Positions 6,722 through 23,924 of a stretch of DNA of 32,000 bases are shown piece by piece. The notes below the pieces were generated by a model. It made no database searches and was not told where the DNA came from. It saw only the letters and a program-made list of their open reading frames with translations. This DNA is from Acaryochloris marina MBIC11017 (GTDB taxonomy: Bacteria; Cyanobacteriota; Cyanobacteriia; Thermosynechococcales; Thermosynechococcaceae). Location: contig NC_009925.1 of the NCBI RefSeq assembly GCF_000018105.1, forward strand, positions 3,810,001 to 3,842,000, given 5' to 3'. Position numbers and translations under genes: made by a program. Each line of letters starts with the position of its first letter. Within the stretch, counting starts at the first letter, position 1.

Positions 6722-7107
6722 TTCACCAGAATCACAACCTTTACCTTTCTACAGAAAAGCAAATGACTGGCATCCCCCTTTCCATATCTAAATCTGATAG
6801 TGTTGATTTTAGATCTAACTGGGTGAGATGCATCCCATTTTCAGGACATGGATTATGATTTCTAATGTCAAAAAGGAAAAGGTGGCCCCAGCTGACCCAT
6901 GGCTATTGTCATAGTCACTTAACATAACCGCTTTTCACTAAAACGGTTGTCCATGCACCTGTTGCTTGAAATTTGATGTTCTTGCTTTAGGCATCTGTAG
7001 AGCTAGAAACACTTCAGTCTCTGCTACTAGAGTAAGCAGAATACTCAAATCAAGATACTTCGATCATCGGACTGGGCAGTAAGTCTAGGAGTTCAGGCAG
7101 AAGCCGT

Positions 7108-7458
7108 TTAGTCTTCTAAACGCGTGATCAGAACTTTTAGCTCTTCAGCTAATTCTTGACTGGTAATTTTTTGCTCAGTCTCACTAGTATCATCCATAAA
7201 CATATTGCCTTTACCCGTCAATAGCCAATCGATGGACACCTGATAATAGGTGTTGAGCAAAATTAAAAAATCTATATTTAGCAAATAATCACCGCACTCA
7301 CAGCCAGACCATTGTCTGACAGAGATAGAAAGATTCTTGGCGATTTGAACTTGGGACAACCCTAAATGAGCCCGTAGCTGCTTCATTCGTCTGCCAATTT
7401 TTTGGGCTGCAATATTAATAATTAGCTGATCTTTTTTCCCGAGTTGCTTGCGAGGCAT
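7108..7458 (-). CDS. XRE-family helix-turn-helix transcriptional regulator
   Basis: 116 aa. MKQLRAHLGLSQVQIAKNLSISVRQWSGCECGDYLLNIDFLILLNTYYQVSIDWLLTG fits the HTH_XRE pattern (LSQ..lA..lgis...is..E.G......l..l......vs.dwLl.G). The surrounding DNA is AT-rich. Confidence 0.8.
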   Translation of the reverse strand: MPRKQLGKKDQLIINIAAQKIGRRMKQLRAHLGLSQVQIAKNLSISVRQWSGCECGDYLLNIDFLILLNTYYQVSIDWLLTGKGNMFMDDTSETEQKITSQELAEELKVLITRLED

Positions 7459-7990
7459 AGCAGAGTGGCAGATTAGTTTTGATGATTATTGAAGATATTC
7501 AAAAGGACTCAAATTGTAGTCATCTAATCCTAAATGCAACCGAAAAAAAGGGTGATCAGATGACAAAGTTTTGTCTAAATATTGTGCAATAAGGATATTT
7601 TAGACGTAATCCTCAAACGAGTTCTATGTAGGAATACGGATCCTTTTGCAATTACTGGTGCTTTAATCCAGAAAATTATCTACGTGAAAATACTGAAATT
7701 TTGAGTGATGGGCCAAGGTGATGGGGCTATATTGTCCGCTCTTAGGGGTGCCACTCCGTATATTCACGGATACAATAGAGAGAACAGTTATCAAGTGGCA
7801 TCAGTGGTGGTTGCACAGGACGCAATCATCTATGACATTGAGAAGCCTTTAGTCCCTGTTGGGAAGAACACTCTAATCTTTAGGATTTAGCAAATCGTTC
7901 GTTGAGTTTTTGCGAATGTTTATGCTATCTCAGGGCTAGAAAAAGTCATACATTAAAGAAAACATTATCTAGTTGTTGTTAGACATAGCA

Positions 7991-8407
7991 ATGGACACAA
8001 TTCAATACAAGCGATCGACCAAGGGCTGTCAAGCCAGACGGAGAGCGGAACAAAGACACTCAAAACGTCAGCCTACTGCCACGACGAGGAGTAGCCTGCT
8101 GGAATCTTCTTATAAAGCCCAACTGGATTTAGCCGTCAAAGGAGTGTTGTTTGAAAGTCTATACCCTCTCAGTCGAGATGAGATTGCAGAACGTATGACA
8201 TGGTTAATAGCCGATACCAAATATGGAAAAATTAATCGAGTATTTGCGTCTCTACAGCGCTTGATCACCAGTAAGTTAGTTGCAGCAACTCGTGTTGTTG
8301 ATCAAGGAAAGGAGGTCACTAAATATCTTTTGAATCTTCCCTATGAGGAATTGCAAAAAGAGCGGGCGGCGAGGGTGAGAATTCAGCAGCTTCAATGTAA
8401 CGAATAG
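7991..8407 (+). CDS. Hypothetical protein with a basic N-terminus, possibly a winged-helix DNA binder
   Basis: ORF 7973-8407 starts at TTG, and the first ATG is at 7991 (MDTIQYKRS...). I recognise no family motif. It is followed by a strong terminator. Coding status rests only on ORF length and the terminator. Confidence 0.45.
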   Translation: MDTIQYKRSTKGCQARRRAEQRHSKRQPTATTRSSLLESSYKAQLDLAVKGVLFESLYPLSRDEIAERMTWLIADTKYGKINRVFASLQRLITSKLVAATRVVDQGKEVTKYLLNLPYEELQKERAARVRIQQLQCNE

Positions 8408-10994: not shown

Positions 10995-11192
10995 TGGAGC
11001 AGTTTAATCCGGTAGCCATGGGCTAGATCGCTTGAGAACTATGGCGGTTATAAATTGAGTATGTTAAGGTCAATGACTGGATCAATGGCGTGCTGTGAGG
11101 CAATGGTTCAGATTCTGAATATCTGACTGGCACTTTGACGCTGAAAATTGCAGATCAGTGTACCGCCAAACCCACAAGGTTGATTCACGATT

Positions 11193-11264
11193 GCTCGATT
11201 AGCTCAGAGGGAGAGCACCGAGGGGCCATCTCGGGGGGCGTAGGTTCGAATCCTACATCGACAA
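11193..11264 (+). tRNA. Aberrant tRNA-type gene with a GCC (Gly-type) anticodon triplet, a non-canonical anticodon loop and a mismatched 5' acceptor end
   Basis: Hand-folded cloverleaf. The 5' acceptor strand is GCTCGAT, followed by TA. D arm GCTC/AGAGGGA/GAGC. Anticodon arm CCGAG/GGGCCAT/CTCGG. Variable loop GGGGC. T arm GTAGG/TTCGAAT/CCTAC. The 3' acceptor strand is ATCGACA with discriminator A. Pairs 3-70 to 7-66 are Watson-Crick, but 1-72 is G.A and 2-71 is C.C. Position 33 is G instead of the near-invariant U. No CCA is encoded. It could be a pseudogene. Confidence 0.5.
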
Positions 11265-11267
11265 AAC

Positions 11268-11341
11268 TGAAAGCTAGCTCAGTTGGTTAGAGCATCAGAC
11301 TCATAATCTGACGGACACAGGTTCAAATCCTGTACTTTCCA
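11268..11341 (+). tRNA. tRNA with CAU anticodon (elongator Met or Ile2 type) with U1.C72 and C7.A66 acceptor mismatches
   Basis: The 5' acceptor strand is TGAAAGC, with U8 and A9. D arm GCTC/AGTTGGTTA/GAGC. Anticodon arm TCAGA/CTCATAA/TCTGA. Variable loop CGGAC. T arm ACAGG/TTCAAAT/CCTGT. The 3' acceptor strand is ACTTTCC, discriminator A, then CC. The core is very close to bacterial elongator tRNA-Met. It lacks the GGG/CCC anticodon stem of an initiator. It starts only 3 nt after the previous tRNA-type gene. Confidence 0.75.
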
Positions 11342-11343
11342 CC

Positions 11344-11433
11344 GCCCGGTTACGGGCACCTCGTTTGGGACGAGTTATTTCATCTGGTACGGGAGCAATC
11401 CCAAGGTGGTTCGAATCCGCTAAGACAGCACCC
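11344..11433 (+). ncRNA. tRNA-derived element: a Pro(UGG)-type D and anticodon arm, a 29-nt insert with a GNRA hairpin, and a T arm. There is no 5' acceptor strand.
   Basis: GCCC/GGTTAC/GGGC (D-arm-like, 11344-11357). CCTCG/TTTGGGA/CGAGT (11359-11375); the loop is identical to tRNA-Pro UGG loops. A 29-nt segment follows containing GGGA-GCAA-TCCC (11391-11402). Then GGTGG/TTCGAAT/CCGCT (11405-11421, with two G.U pairs) and AAGACAG-C-ACC. Only CC separates it from the discriminator of the preceding tRNA. It does not fold into a canonical cloverleaf. Confidence 0.4.
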
Positions 11434-11496
11434 GGTTGTTGGTGTCGCGTTGAGTGGGTCACCTGGTGATCCACCCAACAATAGCCAAAGGCCAGC

Positions 11497-11504
11497 GCGA
11501 TCGC
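11497..11504. repeat. HIP1 palindrome GCGATCGC (representative copy of a dispersed cyanobacterial repeat)
   Basis: I counted exact GCGATCGC at 4018, 5928, 11497, 12257, 13616, 17312, 17858, 26123, 26487, 28459, 30239 and 30872 (start positions). This density is characteristic of HIP1-rich cyanobacterial genomes. Confidence 0.9.
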
Positions 11505-11537
11505 AGTTGATGATCGGCTTGAGTAGGGTCCTTTGCA

Positions 11538-11571
11538 GGGCAAAGTCTGGCGTTCCCTCCAGACTTTGCCC
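11538..11571 (+). promoter_or_regulatory. Perfect 13-bp stem-loop in the leader upstream of the SPFH-kinase-TLP genes
   Basis: GGGCAAAGTCTGG (11538-11550), loop CGTTCCCT, CCAGACTTTGCCC (11559-11571). No U-tract follows, so it is not a classical terminator. An upstream CTTTGC (11531-11536) can pair with GCAAAG (11540-11545) as an alternative. Confidence 0.5.
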
Positions 11572-11754
11572 TAGCGAACGCCCTATTTGTTGGCGGTTGG
11601 ACCCATGCTTAATCTTCGGGTTGAGTTGCGGTTCTGCTCCACCTTAATTCAGCCAGTCACGGGCGATGGCCCGCACTGTAACTGTTGATGCCAGCAGCTT
11701 AGGGTGCCTTTAAAAGTGCAGATGGACCTGCACGAGAAGAAGAAGGAAATATCA

Positions 11755-13287
11755 ATGTTTAAGTCTTTTTACATTAAGCCCCATGAGCGGGGCATGTTGT
11801 TCTATCGCAGTAAGTTTGAGATGTTTTTGCTGCCGGGTACCCATCGCCGCATGGGGTGGCATTGGCAGGTGAAGACCTTTGATTTAAATCAGCCCCAAGC
11901 CCAGATTGACCATTTGGAGCTGCTATTGCAAACCCATGCCCACAGTATGAATGAGTATTTTACGGTGGTGCGCACGGTTCATAATCAAGCTGCCTTAGTG
12001 CGATTGGGACAACAATGGTGCACGATTGGTCCCAACCAGCTGCAAGCGTTTTGGCGTGGCTTTATTGAGGTAGAAGTGCATCTATTTAATCTGGATGAAG
12101 GGATTGACCTGCCGTCTCAGTTTGTCCAGCGATTGCGAGATGTATCGCTACCGGATTTGAATCTAGTCTCAATTCCTGAATCTCAGCTAGGGATGCTCTA
12201 TGAGCAGGATAATTTTGTGCGGCCTCTCGCGTCTGGAGAGTATGGGTTTTGGACCTGCGATCGCAAAGTCAGTATTACCCGCTATGATCGCACTCGTCCC
12301 GATCCAGATTTTACGTTTGTGGACGTACTGGTCGATGATCATCCCGATTTTGTCACCAGTCACTGTGAATTCGTGCAGTTAGGCAATCAGGAGGTTGCCA
12401 TTGTTCGCCATCAGGGCAAAGTGATTAGGATTTTGCCCCCCTGCAGTCGCCAGTTGTTCTGGCAAGGGGTTGCTGTTGAGGTGATTGATATTAGCGATGA
12501 TGCCAAGCTCTCACCTACATTGGTGGCTGAGTTGGTGGCTGGGGTACCCGAGGTATTGGATTTAGCCTATGAGGCCCTGTATATCTTGGAAGTCCCGGCC
12601 CAGCATTTAGGATTGCTGTATGAAGCCAGCGCTTTTGTCGATACCCTTTCTCCCGGCTGGCATGTCTGGTGGACTTTTGGCCGAGCCTGGAAAACGGAAA
12701 TTGTGGATTTGCGTTTGCAAACCCTAGAAGTCTCTGGCCAGGAAATTTTATCCAAGGATAAGGTGTCCCTGCGTCTAAACCTGACAGCGGGGTATCGGAT
12801 TACGGATCCGGTACAGGCTAAAGCTGGCTTGAGCAATATTGAGGATTATCTCTATAAAGAGCTGCAATTTGCTCTACGTTCGGCCGTGGGGACCAAGTCT
12901 CTAGATCAACTCCTAGAAGACAAGGGGGCGATTGATGCCAGCGTCTCTGACTATATCCGTGAGAAAACCGAGCAATATGGAGTTGCTATCGCATCTGTCG
13001 GTGTCAAAGACATCATTCTGCCCGGTGAGATGAAGTCGATTCTCTGTCAGGTGGTGGAAGCGGAAAAATCCGCCCAGGCTAACGTAATTCGTCGTCGAGA
13101 GGAGACTGCTGCTACCCGCAGTATGCTCAACACCGCTAAGGTGATGGAGAGTAATCCCGTGGCCTTGCGCTTGAAAGAGCTGGAGGTGCTGGAACGGATT
13201 GCGGACAAAATTGAGCATATTCATGTCAATGGCGGTCTCGATAGTATCTTGACTGAGATGATCCGCATCAACGGAACTAGAGAATAG
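11755..13287 (+). CDS. SPFH/band-7 (stomatin/slipin-like) protein with a repeated N-terminal region
   Basis: ORF 11704-13287. ATG 11755 is preceded by GAAGGAAATATCA (SD-like), giving MFKSFYIKPHERGMLF. The C-terminal half is a clear SPFH domain followed by a coiled coil: EILSKDKVSLRLNLTAGYRITDP...YGVAIASVGVKDIILPGEMKSILCQVVEAEKSAQANVIRRREETAATRS...LRLKELEVLERIA. Confidence 0.85.
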   Translation: MFKSFYIKPHERGMLFYRSKFEMFLLPGTHRRMGWHWQVKTFDLNQPQAQIDHLELLLQTHAHSMNEYFTVVRTVHNQAALVRLGQQWCTIGPNQLQAFWRGFIEVEVHLFNLDEGIDLPSQFVQRLRDVSLPDLNLVSIPESQLGMLYEQDNFVRPLASGEYGFWTCDRKVSITRYDRTRPDPDFTFVDVLVDDHPDFVTSHCEFVQLGNQEVAIVRHQGKVIRILPPCSRQLFWQGVAVEVIDISDDAKLSPTLVAELVAGVPEVLDLAYEALYILEVPAQHLGLLYEASAFVDTLSPGWHVWWTFGRAWKTEIVDLRLQTLEVSGQEILSKDKVSLRLNLTAGYRITDPVQAKAGLSNIEDYLYKELQFALRSAVGTKSLDQLLEDKGAIDASVSDYIREKTEQYGVAIASVGVKDIILPGEMKSILCQVVEAEKSAQANVIRRREETAATRSMLNTAKVMESNPVALRLKELEVLERIADKIEHIHVNGGLDSILTEMIRINGTRE

Positions 13288-13326
13288 AGCCGATCGGGCA
13301 TCGGCTCCACACTGAAAAGGCAAACG

Positions 13327-13770
13327 ATGGAAGCTGTAATCTTGGTGGGTATTCAGGCTACGGGTAAATCGACGTTTTATCACCACCAGTTTGGACGCAC
13401 CCATGTGCGGATCAACCTGGATATGTTGAAAACACGACATCGTGAGCAACAGTTTTTGGATACCTGCCTAGTCACCCGCCAACGGTTTGTGGTGGATAAC
13501 ACGAATCCTACCCCTGCTGAGCGACAGCGGTATATCCAACCCGCTCAACAACAGGGTTTTTCGATTACGGGGTATTACTTTGAATCGAAGTTGGCAGCGG
13601 CTTTGATTCGGAATTGCGATCGCACGCCTGACCAACGCATTCCAGACAAAGGGATTCGCGGGACAGCCTCTCGCCTGATCTTGCCTACCTATGATGAGGG
13701 GTTTGACCAGCTTTTTTCCGTTCGTCTTCTTCCTCATCAACAATTTTCGGTTGAGGATTGGCAATTATGA
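13327..13770 (+). CDS. Polynucleotide 5'-hydroxyl kinase (P-loop, PNKP / T4 Pnk kinase-domain family)
   Basis: 147 aa. Walker A VGIQATGKST, then RINLD (catalytic Asp context), VVDNTNPTPAERQRYIQPAQQQGFSITGYYFES, IRNCDR and PTYDEGFDQLFSV. This is collinear with my recollection of the mammalian PNKP kinase domain (VIDNTNPD..SR.RYI..A...G...RCF.F, ...P...EGF) and T4 Pnk (GSGKST, NRDD, SDTN, RNSKR). RBS AAAGG lies 6 nt upstream. Confidence 0.85.
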   Translation: MEAVILVGIQATGKSTFYHHQFGRTHVRINLDMLKTRHREQQFLDTCLVTRQRFVVDNTNPTPAERQRYIQPAQQQGFSITGYYFESKLAAALIRNCDRTPDQRIPDKGIRGTASRLILPTYDEGFDQLFSVRLLPHQQFSVEDWQL

Positions 13771-14528
13771 AATTTACTGAACTCGATCAAACCTTGAGGA
13801 TCTATGAAACCGCTTATGACCTCTGCGTTCTGCCTGGGCTGCAGATGGTCGCTCGGTTAGATGGACGGAATTTTACTCGGTTAACGAAAGAAACCCTCGA
13901 TTTAGATGCTCCCTTTGATGCCACCTTTCGAGATGCCATGGTGGCAACGGTTCAGCATTTGATGACCTGTGGATTTCGAGTCCTTTATGGCTATACCCAA
14001 AGCGATGAAATCTCTTTACTGCTGCACCCAGACGAGCAGACCTTTGCTCGTAAGCTACGTAAACTCAACTCCGTGCTTGCAGCGGAAGCTAGTGCGAAAA
14101 TGTCGTTGATCTTAGGCTGTATAGCAGTTTTCGACTGTCGAATCTCCCAACTGCCAACGGTGGATTTAGTGGTCGACTACTTCCGATGGCGACAAGAAGA
14201 TGCCCATCGCAATGCCCTCAATGCCCATTGCTACTGGATGTTGCGTAAAGGGGGTGATTCAGCGGGCACTGCAACCCAGAAATTAGAGGGATTATCCGTT
14301 GGCGATAAAAATGAATTGCTGTTTCAACTGGGGCAGATGAACTTTAACGACTTACCCCCCTGGCAAAAACGAGGAGTGGGCTGTCTTTGGCAGTCGTATC
14401 CAACGGCAGGTGTTAACCCTGTTTCAGGAGAAGTATCTCAAGGGACGCGAACGAAAATCGGCGTTGAGCTTAACTTGCCGATGAAAGAGCACTACAGGGA
14501 ATTTATCCTTAAGCGAATGACGCTCTAG
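13767..14528 (+). CDS. Thg1-like protein (TLP), tRNA(His) guanylyltransferase family 3'-5' nucleotidyltransferase
   Basis: ORF 13758-14528. ATG 13767 overlaps the kinase TGA (ATGA). Family hallmarks are VARLDGRNFTRLT, YGYTQSDEISLLL, VFDCRISQLP, DYFRWRQEDAHRNALNAHCYWML, GDKNELLF and WQKRG. These are collinear with eukaryotic Thg1 (VVRLDGRNFHRF, YGQSDEYSFVF, FDGRVV, YLSWRQADCHINNLYN, DKNEILF, RKG). Confidence 0.9.
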   Translation: MKFTELDQTLRIYETAYDLCVLPGLQMVARLDGRNFTRLTKETLDLDAPFDATFRDAMVATVQHLMTCGFRVLYGYTQSDEISLLLHPDEQTFARKLRKLNSVLAAEASAKMSLILGCIAVFDCRISQLPTVDLVVDYFRWRQEDAHRNALNAHCYWMLRKGGDSAGTATQKLEGLSVGDKNELLFQLGQMNFNDLPPWQKRGVGCLWQSYPTAGVNPVSGEVSQGTRTKIGVELNLPMKEHYREFILKRMTL

Positions 14529-21822: not shown

Positions 21823-22118
21823 TTCTGTGACAGTATGAAATGAAGTAAAACAAGTGTGGCTTCAACATATTTTTGTTTGAGAATGCCGATAGCTTCAATA
21901 GCAATGGAGAAATCTATACTGTAATGGCCCTAGTCTTCAAGCCCAGAGATTTATGAGGAAGTGTAAGGGATCGATTGGGGGAGAATACCTGGGAATCTCT
22001 GTTGATCCATAAGCTGAATAATGCCATGATCGCTCAGCGCCAGAAGATATCGATGGCCCAGAAATTATAAGGTGCACGTTGTGATGTGCACGGTTAAATC
22101 TCAATAGATAACCCTGAA

Positions 22119-23924
22119 ATGAAAAAGTTCTTAAAGCAATTTCTCTATATACTAGCAGACCAGAAAATTATGCTATTGGTTTTGCTGGCTGCTGTTTTGG
22201 GAAATGCTGTTATAGAAACCTTAGGTATTGGCCTGATTGGACCTTTTATTGCCTTTGCAAGCGATCCAGAGCTAGTAGAAAAAACAATTGTAATTGGCCA
22301 AGTCTATGACTGGTTGAACTTTGAATCTAGGGAAAGGTTTATTGCATTTTTGGCTTTATTTATTATTATTATTTTTTATGTAAAGTCTTTTCTGAATTTT
22401 GTTATTCGTCGCTATATTTTTAACTTTGTATATCAGTACCAAGGTAAGCTGCGGATTCGGTTGTTAAGTGCGTATATGCAAATGCCATATACATTTCACT
22501 TAAAAAATAATTCCGCATTTATGATTCAGAGCATTATGAATCATACAGTTAGCTTTTGTAATGGCATCTTACTAGAGCTGCTGAATTCATTTGTTAGCCT
22601 AACGATTATTACCTTTCTGAGTATATTGCTGATTTATACGAGCCCTATCGCAACCATTGTGATTGGACTGATTCTATTTGTTGTTTTTGCGATTATTCTG
22701 CGCTTAAAAAATACGCTTTCTCGTTGGGGCAAAACGATTGCCCAGTCTCAAGCTGAGATGATTCGAGTCGTTAACCATAGTCTAGGGTCTGTAAAAGAGA
22801 CCAAAGTCATTGGGTGTGAGTCATTCTTCTTAGATCAACTAGATACCCAAGCTCAGTTATATTCCACTTCTCTCAGCGATTTCATGTCCTTCAATCAAAT
22901 CCCGCGCATTACGATTGAAGCCATGATTATGACCTTTATTCTAGGTTTTATTTCTGTTTCGATCTTAACGAATCAGGACTTCCAAGGGCTGATTTCGACA
23001 TTGGGTATCTTTGCGGTTGTATCGATACGATTGATGCCTTTGGCAACACAACTCAGCAAAGGTTTGAGCGTTTTAAGAAGCTCAACATTTGTCTTGGAAA
23101 AACTGTATCACGACCTAAAAGAGCTAGAAAATCATCAGGCCCTCATAGCGCCTTCTGCAGATGTTGCGGCTCAGTTCAAACCAGCGAATGGTAGTTTGGA
23201 ACCTTCTCATTTAGACTTTGAACAGGAGATTTTATTAGATAAAATCTCTTTCCAGTATGAAGGTGCTAAAAACCCGTCTCTCAATCAGATTCAACTTCGT
23301 ATTAAGAAAGGAGAATCCATCGCTCTGATTGGTAAATCAGGTGCAGGAAAAACGACCCTAGTAGATGTGCTCCTAGGCCTTCTGACGCCGACAGGGGGAG
23401 ATATAAAAGTTGATGATCAATCGGTTTACCAAGATTTGAGGGCTTGGCAGAATTTATTGGGTTATATTCCCCAATCTATCTTTTTGATTGATGACACCTT
23501 AGAGCGCAATATTGCCCTTGGGGTGCCCGATCACCTGATTGATGAGACTCGACTTAACCGTGCCATTGAATTAGCACAGCTATCTGAGCTCGTGAAGGAG
23601 CTACCCGATGGTGTGAATACGAATCTAGGAGAGCGTGGAGCCAATTTGTCTGGTGGTCAACGACAACGGGTTGGGATTGCCAGAGCTTTGTATCATGAGC
23701 GGGAAATTTTGGTGTTGGATGAAGCAACCTCTGCCCTTGATAATGAAACAGAGGCGCTGGTGTCAGAGGCGATTCGCTCTCTGAGTGACTCGAAGACGAT
23801 GATTATCATTGCCCACCGTTTAACCACGGTGGAGCATTGTAATTGCATTCATCTGATGAAGAATGGTCAGATTATTCAATCTGGAACCTATGAAGAAGTG
23901 GTTTTGGCAGCTAATGAAGAATAA
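22119..23924 (+). CDS. ABC transporter, fused permease/ATPase (type I exporter, MsbA-like half transporter)
   Basis: 601 aa with six predicted TM helices in the N-terminal half. Walker A GKSGAGKTT, Q-loop, signature LSGGQRQR, Walker B ILVLDEATSALD, H-loop IAHRL. There is no C39 peptidase domain. The gene is visibly AT-rich relative to its neighbours. Confidence 0.92.
   Translation: MKKFLKQFLYILADQKIMLLVLLAAVLGNAVIETLGIGLIGPFIAFASDPELVEKTIVIGQVYDWLNFESRERFIAFLALFIIIIFYVKSFLNFVIRRYIFNFVYQYQGKLRIRLLSAYMQMPYTFHLKNNSAFMIQSIMNHTVSFCNGILLELLNSFVSLTIITFLSILLIYTSPIATIVIGLILFVVFAIILRLKNTLSRWGKTIAQSQAEMIRVVNHSLGSVKETKVIGCESFFLDQLDTQAQLYSTSLSDFMSFNQIPRITIEAMIMTFILGFISVSILTNQDFQGLISTLGIFAVVSIRLMPLATQLSKGLSVLRSSTFVLEKLYHDLKELENHQALIAPSADVAAQFKPANGSLEPSHLDFEQEILLDKISFQYEGAKNPSLNQIQLRIKKGESIALIGKSGAGKTTLVDVLLGLLTPTGGDIKVDDQSVYQDLRAWQNLLGYIPQSIFLIDDTLERNIALGVPDHLIDETRLNRAIELAQLSELVKELPDGVNTNLGERGANLSGGQRQRVGIARALYHEREILVLDEATSALDNETEALVSEAIRSLSDSKTMIIIAHRLTTVEHCNCIHLMKNGQIIQSGTYEEVVLAANEE

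Follow-up and report, generated by a model that had tools for sequence, protein, structure and literature searches.

Mismatched cloverleaves beside a Thg1-like polymerase in Acaryochloris marina as probable tRNA-like modules of a composite cyanobacterial RNA

tRNA-like domains are joined to other structured domains in YrlA, tmRNA and mascRNA/MALAT1, and GOLLD and ROOL are large, ornate RNAs found beside tRNAs. Repair of mismatched 5' ends is seen in mitochondrial tRNAs of Acanthamoeba, chytrids and Dictyostelium, and the Thg1-like proteins are, to our knowledge, the only enzyme family known for this editing. What the bacterial members of the family do in the cell has been an open question since 2010. 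Of the gene neighbourhoods of bacterial Thg1 homologues, the one that recurs most persistently has a kinase gene next to the gene for the Thg1-like protein (TLP) (PMC2904730). Which RNAs bacterial TLPs act on in nature is unknown (PMC6471195), and Rao et al. argued against 5' editing in bacteria because bacterial tRNA genes were without 5' mismatches (PMC3061083). The locus described here, in a 32 kb stretch of the Acaryochloris marina MBIC11017 genome (the window), has two cloverleaves with mismatched acceptor stems beside such a kinase–TLP cassette, and on its face this context favours editing. The reading that we find the more convincing, and regard as probable rather than assured, is that both cloverleaves belong, as tRNA-like modules, to a conserved composite non-coding RNA of ~600 nt, which is widespread in cyanobacteria and lies nearly always just upstream of a slipin gene. 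Module 1 would be non-decoding, its mismatches specific to the lineage, and the modules would act as handles.

Coordinates are positions in the window unless a locus label (L...) is given. ARAGORN reported two tRNAs in the whole 32 kb, at 11192-11265 (gcc) and 11268-11343 (cat). Both modules are of tRNA type, with a cloverleaf, conserved D and T arms and matches to Rfam RF00005 above its cut-off of 29 (41.7 bits, E = 9.8e-06 for module 1; 60.4 bits, E = 6.9e-11 for module 2). Their limits come from a cloverleaf parse, ARAGORN, Rfam and orthologue comparison. Module 1 (11193-11264, + strand), earlier named ‘tRNA-Gly gcc’, pairs GCTCGAT with ATCGACA, giving G1.A72 and C2.C71 followed by five Watson-Crick pairs. 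Its D, anticodon and T stems are all perfect in the window copy, its loop GGGCCAU has G at position 33, and its discriminator A is at 11264. The spacer AAC (11265-11267, + strand, 3 nt), read directly from the sequence, leads to module 2 (11268-11341, + strand), earlier ‘tRNA-Met cat’, where TGAAAGC faces ACTTTCC with U1.C72 and C7.A66. Module 2 has the anticodon loop CUCAUAA, the T loop TTCAAAT and a discriminator A followed by CCG. The 3' tails are thus A-AAC and A-CCG, and a full CCA is encoded by neither module. A position-by-position parse agrees with every factual statement of the first-pass annotation about these letters: the coordinates, the mismatches, G33, the AAC spacer and the missing full CCA. 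The signature that it cites for 5'-edited genes, terminal mismatches limited to acceptor positions 1-3, is seen in module 1, where the mismatches are at 1-72 and 2-71 only, but module 2 has 7-66 in addition to 1-72.

The conserved unit is larger than the two cloverleaves. The interval from ~11100 to the slipin start is conserved as strongly as coding genes (alignment A2), and the modules form the middle of a composite RNA that occupies ~11104-11698 in the window. In order, this consists of a 5' domain, module 1, module 2, small hairpins with the remnant of a third module, and a 260-nt 3' domain. The description of the locus as two tRNA genes gives way to one in which they are modules of this larger RNA, with anticodons that differ between orthologues. 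The composite RNA was found in 14 further loci (L081, L082, L084, L085, L001, L088, L089, L168, L179, L190 and L210-L213). Five of these are syntenic with the window, having orf322, the two cloverleaves, slipin, kinase and TLP in order, with TLPs 98% (L081, the closest relative), 94% (L082), 88% (L084), 78% (L085) and 81% (L001) identical to that of the window. Further copies came from a hidden Markov model of the conserved interval (nhmmer) and follow-up scans. None of these has a TLP in the fetched flank. They comprise the copies of Chroococcidiopsis thermalis PCC 7203 (L088) and L089; copies on metagenome contigs (L168, L179 and L190, the last partial); two copies in Nostoc sp. T09 (L210); one in Spirulina sp. 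SIO3F2 (L211); and those of Gloeothece citriformis PCC 7424 and Calothrix sp. PCC 7507 (loci L212/L213). The metagenome pattern scan was loose, and 3 of the 120 stretches it gave were true copies. In every locus but L089 the next gene after the composite RNA is slipin, or ydeI followed by slipin, with two provisos: the sequence available for L179 does not include the downstream gene, and slipin was not found in the L190 locus. The RNA is conserved from Acaryochloris-like strains to Nostocales, Chroococcidiopsis and Gloeothece; it was not found in Acaryochloris thomasi.

The composite RNA comes in two flavours that differ after module 2 (alignments A4 and A6). One is seen in L213, L168, L179 and L210a, and the other in L088, L212, L210b and the window clade, so that Nostoc sp. 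T09 has one of each. Origins on mobile elements were considered and rejected. A scan of viral contigs with a 3'-domain pattern gave 19 chance matches and no homologous one, and neither the TLP nor the composite RNA was found on any cyanobacterial plasmid.

Structural conservation extends through all parts of the RNA. The 5' domain (11104-11164, + strand; RNAalifold, 16 copies) consists of helix 1 (11104-11129), a 9-bp hairpin with a conserved 7-nt loop UCUGNAU, and helix 2 (11129-11164), which has a UA bulge and ends in GTGTACC; 7 of the 15 predicted pairs show compensatory changes. The two modules, scored against a fixed cloverleaf structure in 13 sequences, have 97.4% of stem positions paired, compared with 34-42% for slid controls, and compensatory changes in 16 of 36 pairs, with none of 500 shuffles as good. 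Single-sequence folding of the module pair is uninformative (z = -0.9). Two small conserved hairpins follow, GCCC-GGTTAC-GGGC and CTCGT-TTGGG-ACGAG (11344-11374, + strand), with compensatory changes of the type CTCG/CGAG versus CTTG/CAAG (alignments A3 and A6); the second scored as terminator-like in a simple scan. The third-module remnant (11391-11421, + strand) is a GNRA-capped hairpin, GGGA-GCAA-TCCC, with a T arm, GGTGG-TTCGAAT-CCGCT. It aligns to a third cloverleaf that is complete in copy a of Nostoc sp. T09 (L210 1626-1702), and its tetraloop is GCAA in the window and GAAA in L001. The 3' domain (11438-11698, + strand; RNAalifold, 15 copies) is a multi-helix structure closed by long-range helices. 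It has a long closing helix, a long internal hairpin and about six internal helices, with compensatory changes in 36 of 64 predicted pairs. Its invariant motifs include GCCAG, TTGAGT, GAACG-C-TAT, C-GGG, TTAAT-CAG and GCCCGCAC, and as a single sequence it folds at -134.3 kcal/mol (z = -7.9).

Two observations lie at the edges of this architecture. In Spirulina sp. SIO3F2 a T-arm-like sequence, GGGGTTCAAATCCC, stands just upstream of the 5' domain (L211 3345-3370) and hints at another tRNA-like unit. An 80-aa open reading frame on the minus strand (11301-11543) overlaps module 2 and the small hairpins. A protein-coding explanation was tried for it and rejected: it was gene-called in one orthologue only (L085), indels of 1-10 nt break it in others, and it is probably spurious.

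Searches for a known family returned only the tRNA matches. Rfam 15, scanned both at gathering thresholds and at E <= 10, gave nothing else for the composite RNA, and membership of a known family was set aside on this basis; ARAGORN found no tmRNA in the window, and literature searches found no earlier description of the RNA. What appears to be new is the family itself, along with its architecture and the genomic partners; tRNA mimics within non-coding RNAs are a known kind.

Comparison across the family bears directly on the mismatches. The acceptor stem of module 1 is fully paired in 11 of 15 copies, the exceptions being the window, L085, L084 and Spirulina. L081, L082 and L001 have UCUCGAU with AUCGAGA or AUUGAGA, forming U1-A72 and C2-G71, so that three of the six TLP-linked orthologues are fully paired; L084 has C1.C72, and L085, from an independent assembly, has exactly the state of the window. 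In 13 sequences, pair 1-72 is GC in 6, UA in 3, AU in 1 and other in 3, and pair 2-71 is CG in 5, UA in 5, GC in 1, UG in 1 and other in 1. This covariation indicates that the terminal pairs of module 1 are under selection for pairing and that G1.A72 and C2.C71 of the window are a local, lineage-specific deviation. The orthologous stems, which had been proposed as a check on whether the mismatches are conserved, give a divided answer: the paired stems of L081, L082 and L001 show that they are not, but recurrence of the G1/C71 state in L085 means that they are no sequencing error.

Decay of tRNA pseudogenes, a strain-specific mutation or a sequencing error would be in keeping with the paired module 1 stem of the closest relative, L081. 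Such explanations are extremely improbable, given that the stems are kept by compensatory changes across distant cyanobacteria, that the mismatched state recurs in an independent assembly and that the flanking domains are conserved too. The earlier argument that the intact cores speak for selection and not decay is thereby sustained by the covariation of stems across related loci.

The loop of module 1 is less constrained than its stems. The anticodon stem is kept by compensatory changes, whilst the loop is of 7 nt (GGGCCAU, AGGGGAU), 5 nt (ACAGC) or 4 nt (CAGA, CUUA), with 5 nt in most lineages. There is no alignable anticodon across orthologues, and the features expected of a decoder (a 7-nt loop, U33 and a purine at 37) are not combined in module 1 of the window; in Spirulina module 1 has a canonical loop, CUCUUAA. 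A loop that ranges from 4 to 7 nt argues that module 1 is probably a non-decoder, and the suspicion that the first gene may not decode was probably right. An ordinary pair of tRNA genes was also considered as an identity, and was ruled out by the loop lengths and anticodons across orthologues.

Module 2 varies in other ways. Pair 1-72 is open in the majority of the 15 copies, with every major lineage represented, as U.C, C.C, C.A (four copies), C.U or A.A, whilst pairs 2-6 are kept and show some covariation; at 7-66, C.A is confined to the window clade, and U-A is found elsewhere. Its loop is of 7 nt, mostly with U33 and A37 (both present in the window), the departures being G33 and C37 in L088 and G33 in L212. 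The anticodon is CAU, CAC, CAG, UCU, UGU or UAU according to lineage and is not conserved among orthologues: even the six TLP-linked loci have CAU in four cases and CAC in two, and one of these loci has a long variable-arm insertion in module 2. The gap between the modules is 2-4 nt and usually N73-C-C, with CC(N) in other lineages versus AAC in the window; the modules share one nucleotide in L210a and L212 and about three in Spirulina (L211). NCCA follows module 2 in several lineages. The open 1-72 pair and the changeable anticodon of module 2 are family traits.

The usual downstream neighbour of the composite RNA is the slipin gene (11755-13287, + strand; SPFH/Band 7, Pfam PF01145; about 510 aa), preceded in the window by a hairpin at 11716-11733 and a Shine-Dalgarno-like sequence. 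Its homologues carry the name ‘slipin family protein’ in many cyanobacteria. In Anabaena PCC 7120 the operon of alr0739 (YdeI-like) and alr0740 (slipin) is a direct target of the repressor TrcR (PMC10272220) and is induced 72-fold and 42-fold in a trcR mutant (PMC10272220; PMC9938897). It also responds to chloramphenicol, together with rtcB, which encodes an RNA repair ligase, and with the 26-tRNA trn operon (PMC10272220; PMC9938897). In at least one cyanobacterium, then, the slipin locus belongs to the response to translational stress and to RNA repair. The slipin genes considered here are likely orthologous to alr0740, by analogy of family name and of the YdeI-slipin order; in Calothrix PCC 7507 a YdeI-like gene and slipin come, in that order, directly after the composite RNA.

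An exact TrcR box, TGTAGTAT, lies within ~30 nt of the 3' end of the composite RNA in L088 (4929), L210 (3803), L212 (3769) and L213 (3224 and 3233), before ydeI or slipin genes. The chance of boxes falling at this point is ~8e-11. Placement of the box just after the RNA suggests that in these four loci the composite RNA is probably its own transcription unit, upstream of a stress-regulated promoter. In L081 (3952-5520) gene calling split slipin into two parts, of 398 and 103 aa; the contig has 3.9x coverage, and an assembly error is more likely than a pseudogene.

Such a setting raises the question of whether the modules form a miniature stress-tRNA array, in which module 2, and in a few lineages module 1, is a functional spare tRNA of the sort found in the long tRNA arrays of cyanobacteria, made under translational stress and with an anticodon that is free to change because it is redundant. 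Co-regulation of the slipin operon with the 26-tRNA trn operon in Anabaena fits this, as do the 7-nt loop, U33 and A37 that module 2 mostly keeps, the NCCA encoded in several lineages, the canonical loop of the Spirulina module 1 and the resemblance of module 2 to plasmid-borne tRNA genes (85% identity over 60 nt). The difficulty is that most lineages have module 1 loops of only 4-5 nt, that module 2 itself has G33 with C37 in L088, G33 in L212 and an open 1-72 pair almost everywhere, and that the modules sit between conserved domains that are not tRNA. Moreover, the body of the module does not change along with the anticodon, so that a new anticodon would not bring the corresponding synthetase identity with it. 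A spare-tRNA function is therefore unlikely.

The kinase–TLP cassette follows slipin in the window. The kinase gene (13327-13770, + strand) encodes a polynucleotide-kinase-like P-loop protein of 147 aa (Pfam AAA_33; NCBIfam PNK-3'Pase and bacterial Pnkp), and the TLP gene (13767-14528, + strand) a predicted template-dependent 3'-5' RNA polymerase of 253 aa (Pfam Thg1 and Thg1C; PF04446 6.7e-28, PF14413 1.8e-16). Slipin and kinase are 40 nt apart, and the kinase stop overlaps the TLP start by 4 nt (ATGA), an arrangement of translational coupling; all are on one strand with the modules, and the TLP gene is ~2.4 kb downstream of these, directly after slipin and kinase. The DGR and SDE metal-binding motifs of the TLP are kept, with D32, G33, R34, S79, D80 and E81 invariant in 20 sequences (alignment A1). 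Its best solved relatives, 5AXK (M. acetivorans TLP) and 4KGK (B. thuringiensis TLP), are both template-dependent TLPs. Between the slipin stop and the kinase start there is a strong hairpin without a U tract (13290-13310, GAGCCGAT-CGGGC-ATCGGCTC), which may act in processing or stability at the point where the cassette joined.

For comparison, 80 TLP loci (L001-L080, 1.26 Mb) were collected from many phyla, and in most of them the kinase gene is directly upstream of the TLP gene. Searches with ARAGORN, nhmmer and the covariance model R1 found the composite RNA in the orthologue L001 only and not in the 79 others. Conversely, no TLP was seen beside the other composite RNAs within the 3-5 kb of flank fetched. 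Both occur in one genome, but apart, in Nostoc sp. T09 (L210 and L066) and Spirulina sp. SIO3F2 (L211 and L028), which speaks for a functional link. Adjacency of composite RNA and TLP is a single evolutionary event, confined to one clade, and this speaks against one. The TLPs are 61-72% identical across Cyanobacteria, Chloroflexota, Planctomycetota, Acidobacteriota, Bacillota and Proteobacteria, an unusually high identity that points to strong constraint and horizontal spread of the cassette. PADLOC gave no defence-system match for slipin, kinase or TLP.

The scans of the 80 loci also gave scattered tRNAs, ordinary or odd. A Planctomycetota locus has a tandem tRNA-like pair, one with a 6-nt loop (L036 4365-4558, - strand). 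In an acidobacterial genome a single cloverleaf with C37 lies 0.44 kb upstream of the kinase–TLP pair (L079 5666-5739, + strand), and three 74-nt ‘Leu’ cloverleaves without a long variable arm stand beside a Phycisphaerae TLP (L026 2005-2279, - strand).

The editing idea holds that mismatched or overlapping 5' nucleotides are removed, by RNase P miscleavage or another nuclease, that the kinase supplies a 5' phosphate where this is needed and that the TLP rebuilds the end on the 3' strand. The products would be U1-A72 and G2-C71 in module 1 and G1-C72 in module 2. The modules would then be the first natural substrates of a bacterial TLP, with 5'-short or 5'-OH ends rebuilt by kinase and polymerase at a stress locus. 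There is something to be said for this. A TLP with intact catalytic residues, whose closest solved relatives are template-dependent, is encoded with its kinase ~2 kb downstream on the same strand and across short gaps. In L210a, L212 and L211 the modules abut or overlap by 1-3 nt, so that processing would shorten one end. Mismatches at the module 1 tip are confined to TLP-positive lineages, these being the window clade and Spirulina sp. SIO3F2 with its TLP at L028 (p = 0.077). Furthermore, with the substrates of bacterial TLPs unknown (PMC6471195), it was solely the lack of 5'-mismatched tRNA genes that led to dismissal of bacterial editing (PMC3061083).

Nevertheless, several features do not follow from editing. 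L081, L082 and L001 have the cassette and yet a fully paired module 1, and the window differs from these paired relatives not just at position 1 but also at position 71, which would belong to the template strand; change on one strand only, which had been suggested as a test, is thus not what is seen. The C7.A66 mismatch falls beyond the tip that editing could reach. The open 1-72 pair of module 2, which had been taken as an editing mark, is family-wide and is seen also in Chroococcidiopsis, Gloeothece and Calothrix, where no TLP gene lies in the 3-5 kb of fetched flank. No such modules accompany the 79 other TLP loci. Finally, module 1 is unneeded for decoding, and there is no obvious pressure to restore it. 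All this makes editing decidedly unlikely, and the rebuilt ends that it predicts and the substrate role for the modules carry the same slight chance. Since slipin is tied to stress and repair in Anabaena, the kinase–TLP pair would fit in its appended position without the modules being substrates, and this third factor can account for the adjacency.

A quite different partner is found in two lineages. Reverse transcriptase (RT) genes, 56% identical to one another, adjoin the composite RNA in Chroococcidiopsis PCC 7203 (L088 3170-4213) and Nostoc sp. T09 (L210 2101-3156), and both match PADLOC RT_XIII (E = 1e-148 and 1e-161). The composite RNA or its 3' domain might accordingly be the template or primer RNA of a type XIII retron, with the tRNA-like parts used for recognition or priming and the window holding an orphan copy. 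Type XIII retrons have been reported with a distinct ncRNA (PMC7736814), the Nostoc RT is flanked by two diverged copies of the composite RNA, and the long closing helix and long internal hairpin of the 3' domain also count in its favour. Against this, there is no RT in the 32-kb window or beside the composite RNA in most lineages, in L088 the RNA follows the RT instead of preceding it, the WH-SWIM and ARM proteins that usually accompany type XIII were not seen, and the 3' domain has more internal helices than typical msr-msd RNAs. A retron role is very unlikely.

In the composite RNA interpretation, the modules would serve as tRNA-shaped handles, or punctuation, rather than decoders, and this would account for acceptor, D and T arms that are constrained and anticodon loops that are free. 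The handles may be sites for RNase P and RNase Z cleavage that frees the flanking domains or, alternatively, docking sites for tRNA-binding proteins. The kinase–polymerase cassette would have been added downstream of slipin in one Acaryochloris-like clade. Several points weigh against this interpretation. Module 1 tip mismatches occur in four of eight copies from lineages known to have a TLP and in none of seven others (Fisher test, no phylogenetic correction; the p value is that given above), and by our own estimate a TLP gene would come to lie within 3 kb of tRNA-like genes with acceptor mismatches with an a priori chance of ~1e-3, so that a more direct link is suggested. There is no TrcR box at 11000-11800 of the window, nor at this junction in its clade, so that co-regulation in A. 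marina is no more than a possibility, and the retron-type RT beside the RNA in two lineages is left unaccounted for.

The remainder of the window is cyanobacterial in content, with genes for DUF2396, Ycf66, a PsbU-like protein and a fatty-acid desaturase, and its nearest named relatives are Acaryochloris. Patches of low GC content at 7001-8000 (0.39) and 22001-23000 (0.37, covering an ABC transporter gene), versus about 0.49 elsewhere, may be horizontally acquired.

The locus supplies 5'-mismatched tRNA-like genes in an apparent operon context with a kinase–polymerase cassette, and relatives with paired stems and the same cassette provide a clean natural comparison, making the editing proposal directly testable. 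If the TLP does act on the modules, bacteria would have 5' editing or repair too, at a locus tied to translational stress and with large tRNA-mimic RNAs of a new class as the target. Quite apart from editing, strong covariation, the lack of an Rfam family and a neighbour that belongs to a stress operon in Anabaena make the composite RNA a good candidate for a functional RNA of a new class, with a role in the quality control of tRNA or translation.

Five kinds of known system resemble parts of this locus. The mitochondrial 5'-edited tRNAs, including those repaired by DdiTLP3, share with the modules mismatches at acceptor positions 1-2, an otherwise intact cloverleaf, tight neighbours and a Thg1-like polymerase. 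Here, in contrast, the host is bacterial, module 1 is probably non-decoding, the closest relatives are unmismatched, the 3' strand is involved too and one mismatch is at 7-66. The bacterial cassettes described by Anantharaman, Iyer and Aravind (2010) and Rao et al. (2011) are the same two-gene unit, with a coupled kinase directly upstream, and were predicted to repair tRNA 5' ends. In the window this unit is appended to slipin and lies beside a tRNA-like RNA, a context unseen in the 79 other loci.

The long tRNA array of Anabaena PCC 7120, the trn operon, and its TrcR regulon have in common with this locus close-set genes of tRNA type without a full CCA and with atypical members. Such arrays have ~20 or more tRNA genes, whereas the modules number two here and at most three elsewhere, are inside a larger structured RNA, and include one with a shrunken anticodon loop; the window junction also has no TrcR box. 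The bacterial initiator tRNA, with its C1.A72, is a further point of comparison: module 2 has CAU in the window and an open 1-72 pair in most lineages, but is without the three anticodon-stem G-C pairs, and the identity of its mismatch and anticodon vary.

The composite RNAs of the YrlA, tmRNA and mascRNA type are similar in another respect, since acceptor, T and D features are conserved in them without decoding, and RNase P and RNase Z processing is plausible. YrlA itself (RF02553) scored 19.7 bits against a cut-off of 69, and no gene for a TROVE-domain protein (Ro60/rsr) is present in the window; GOLLD, ROOL and tmRNA gave no match (Rfam at E <= 10, ARAGORN).

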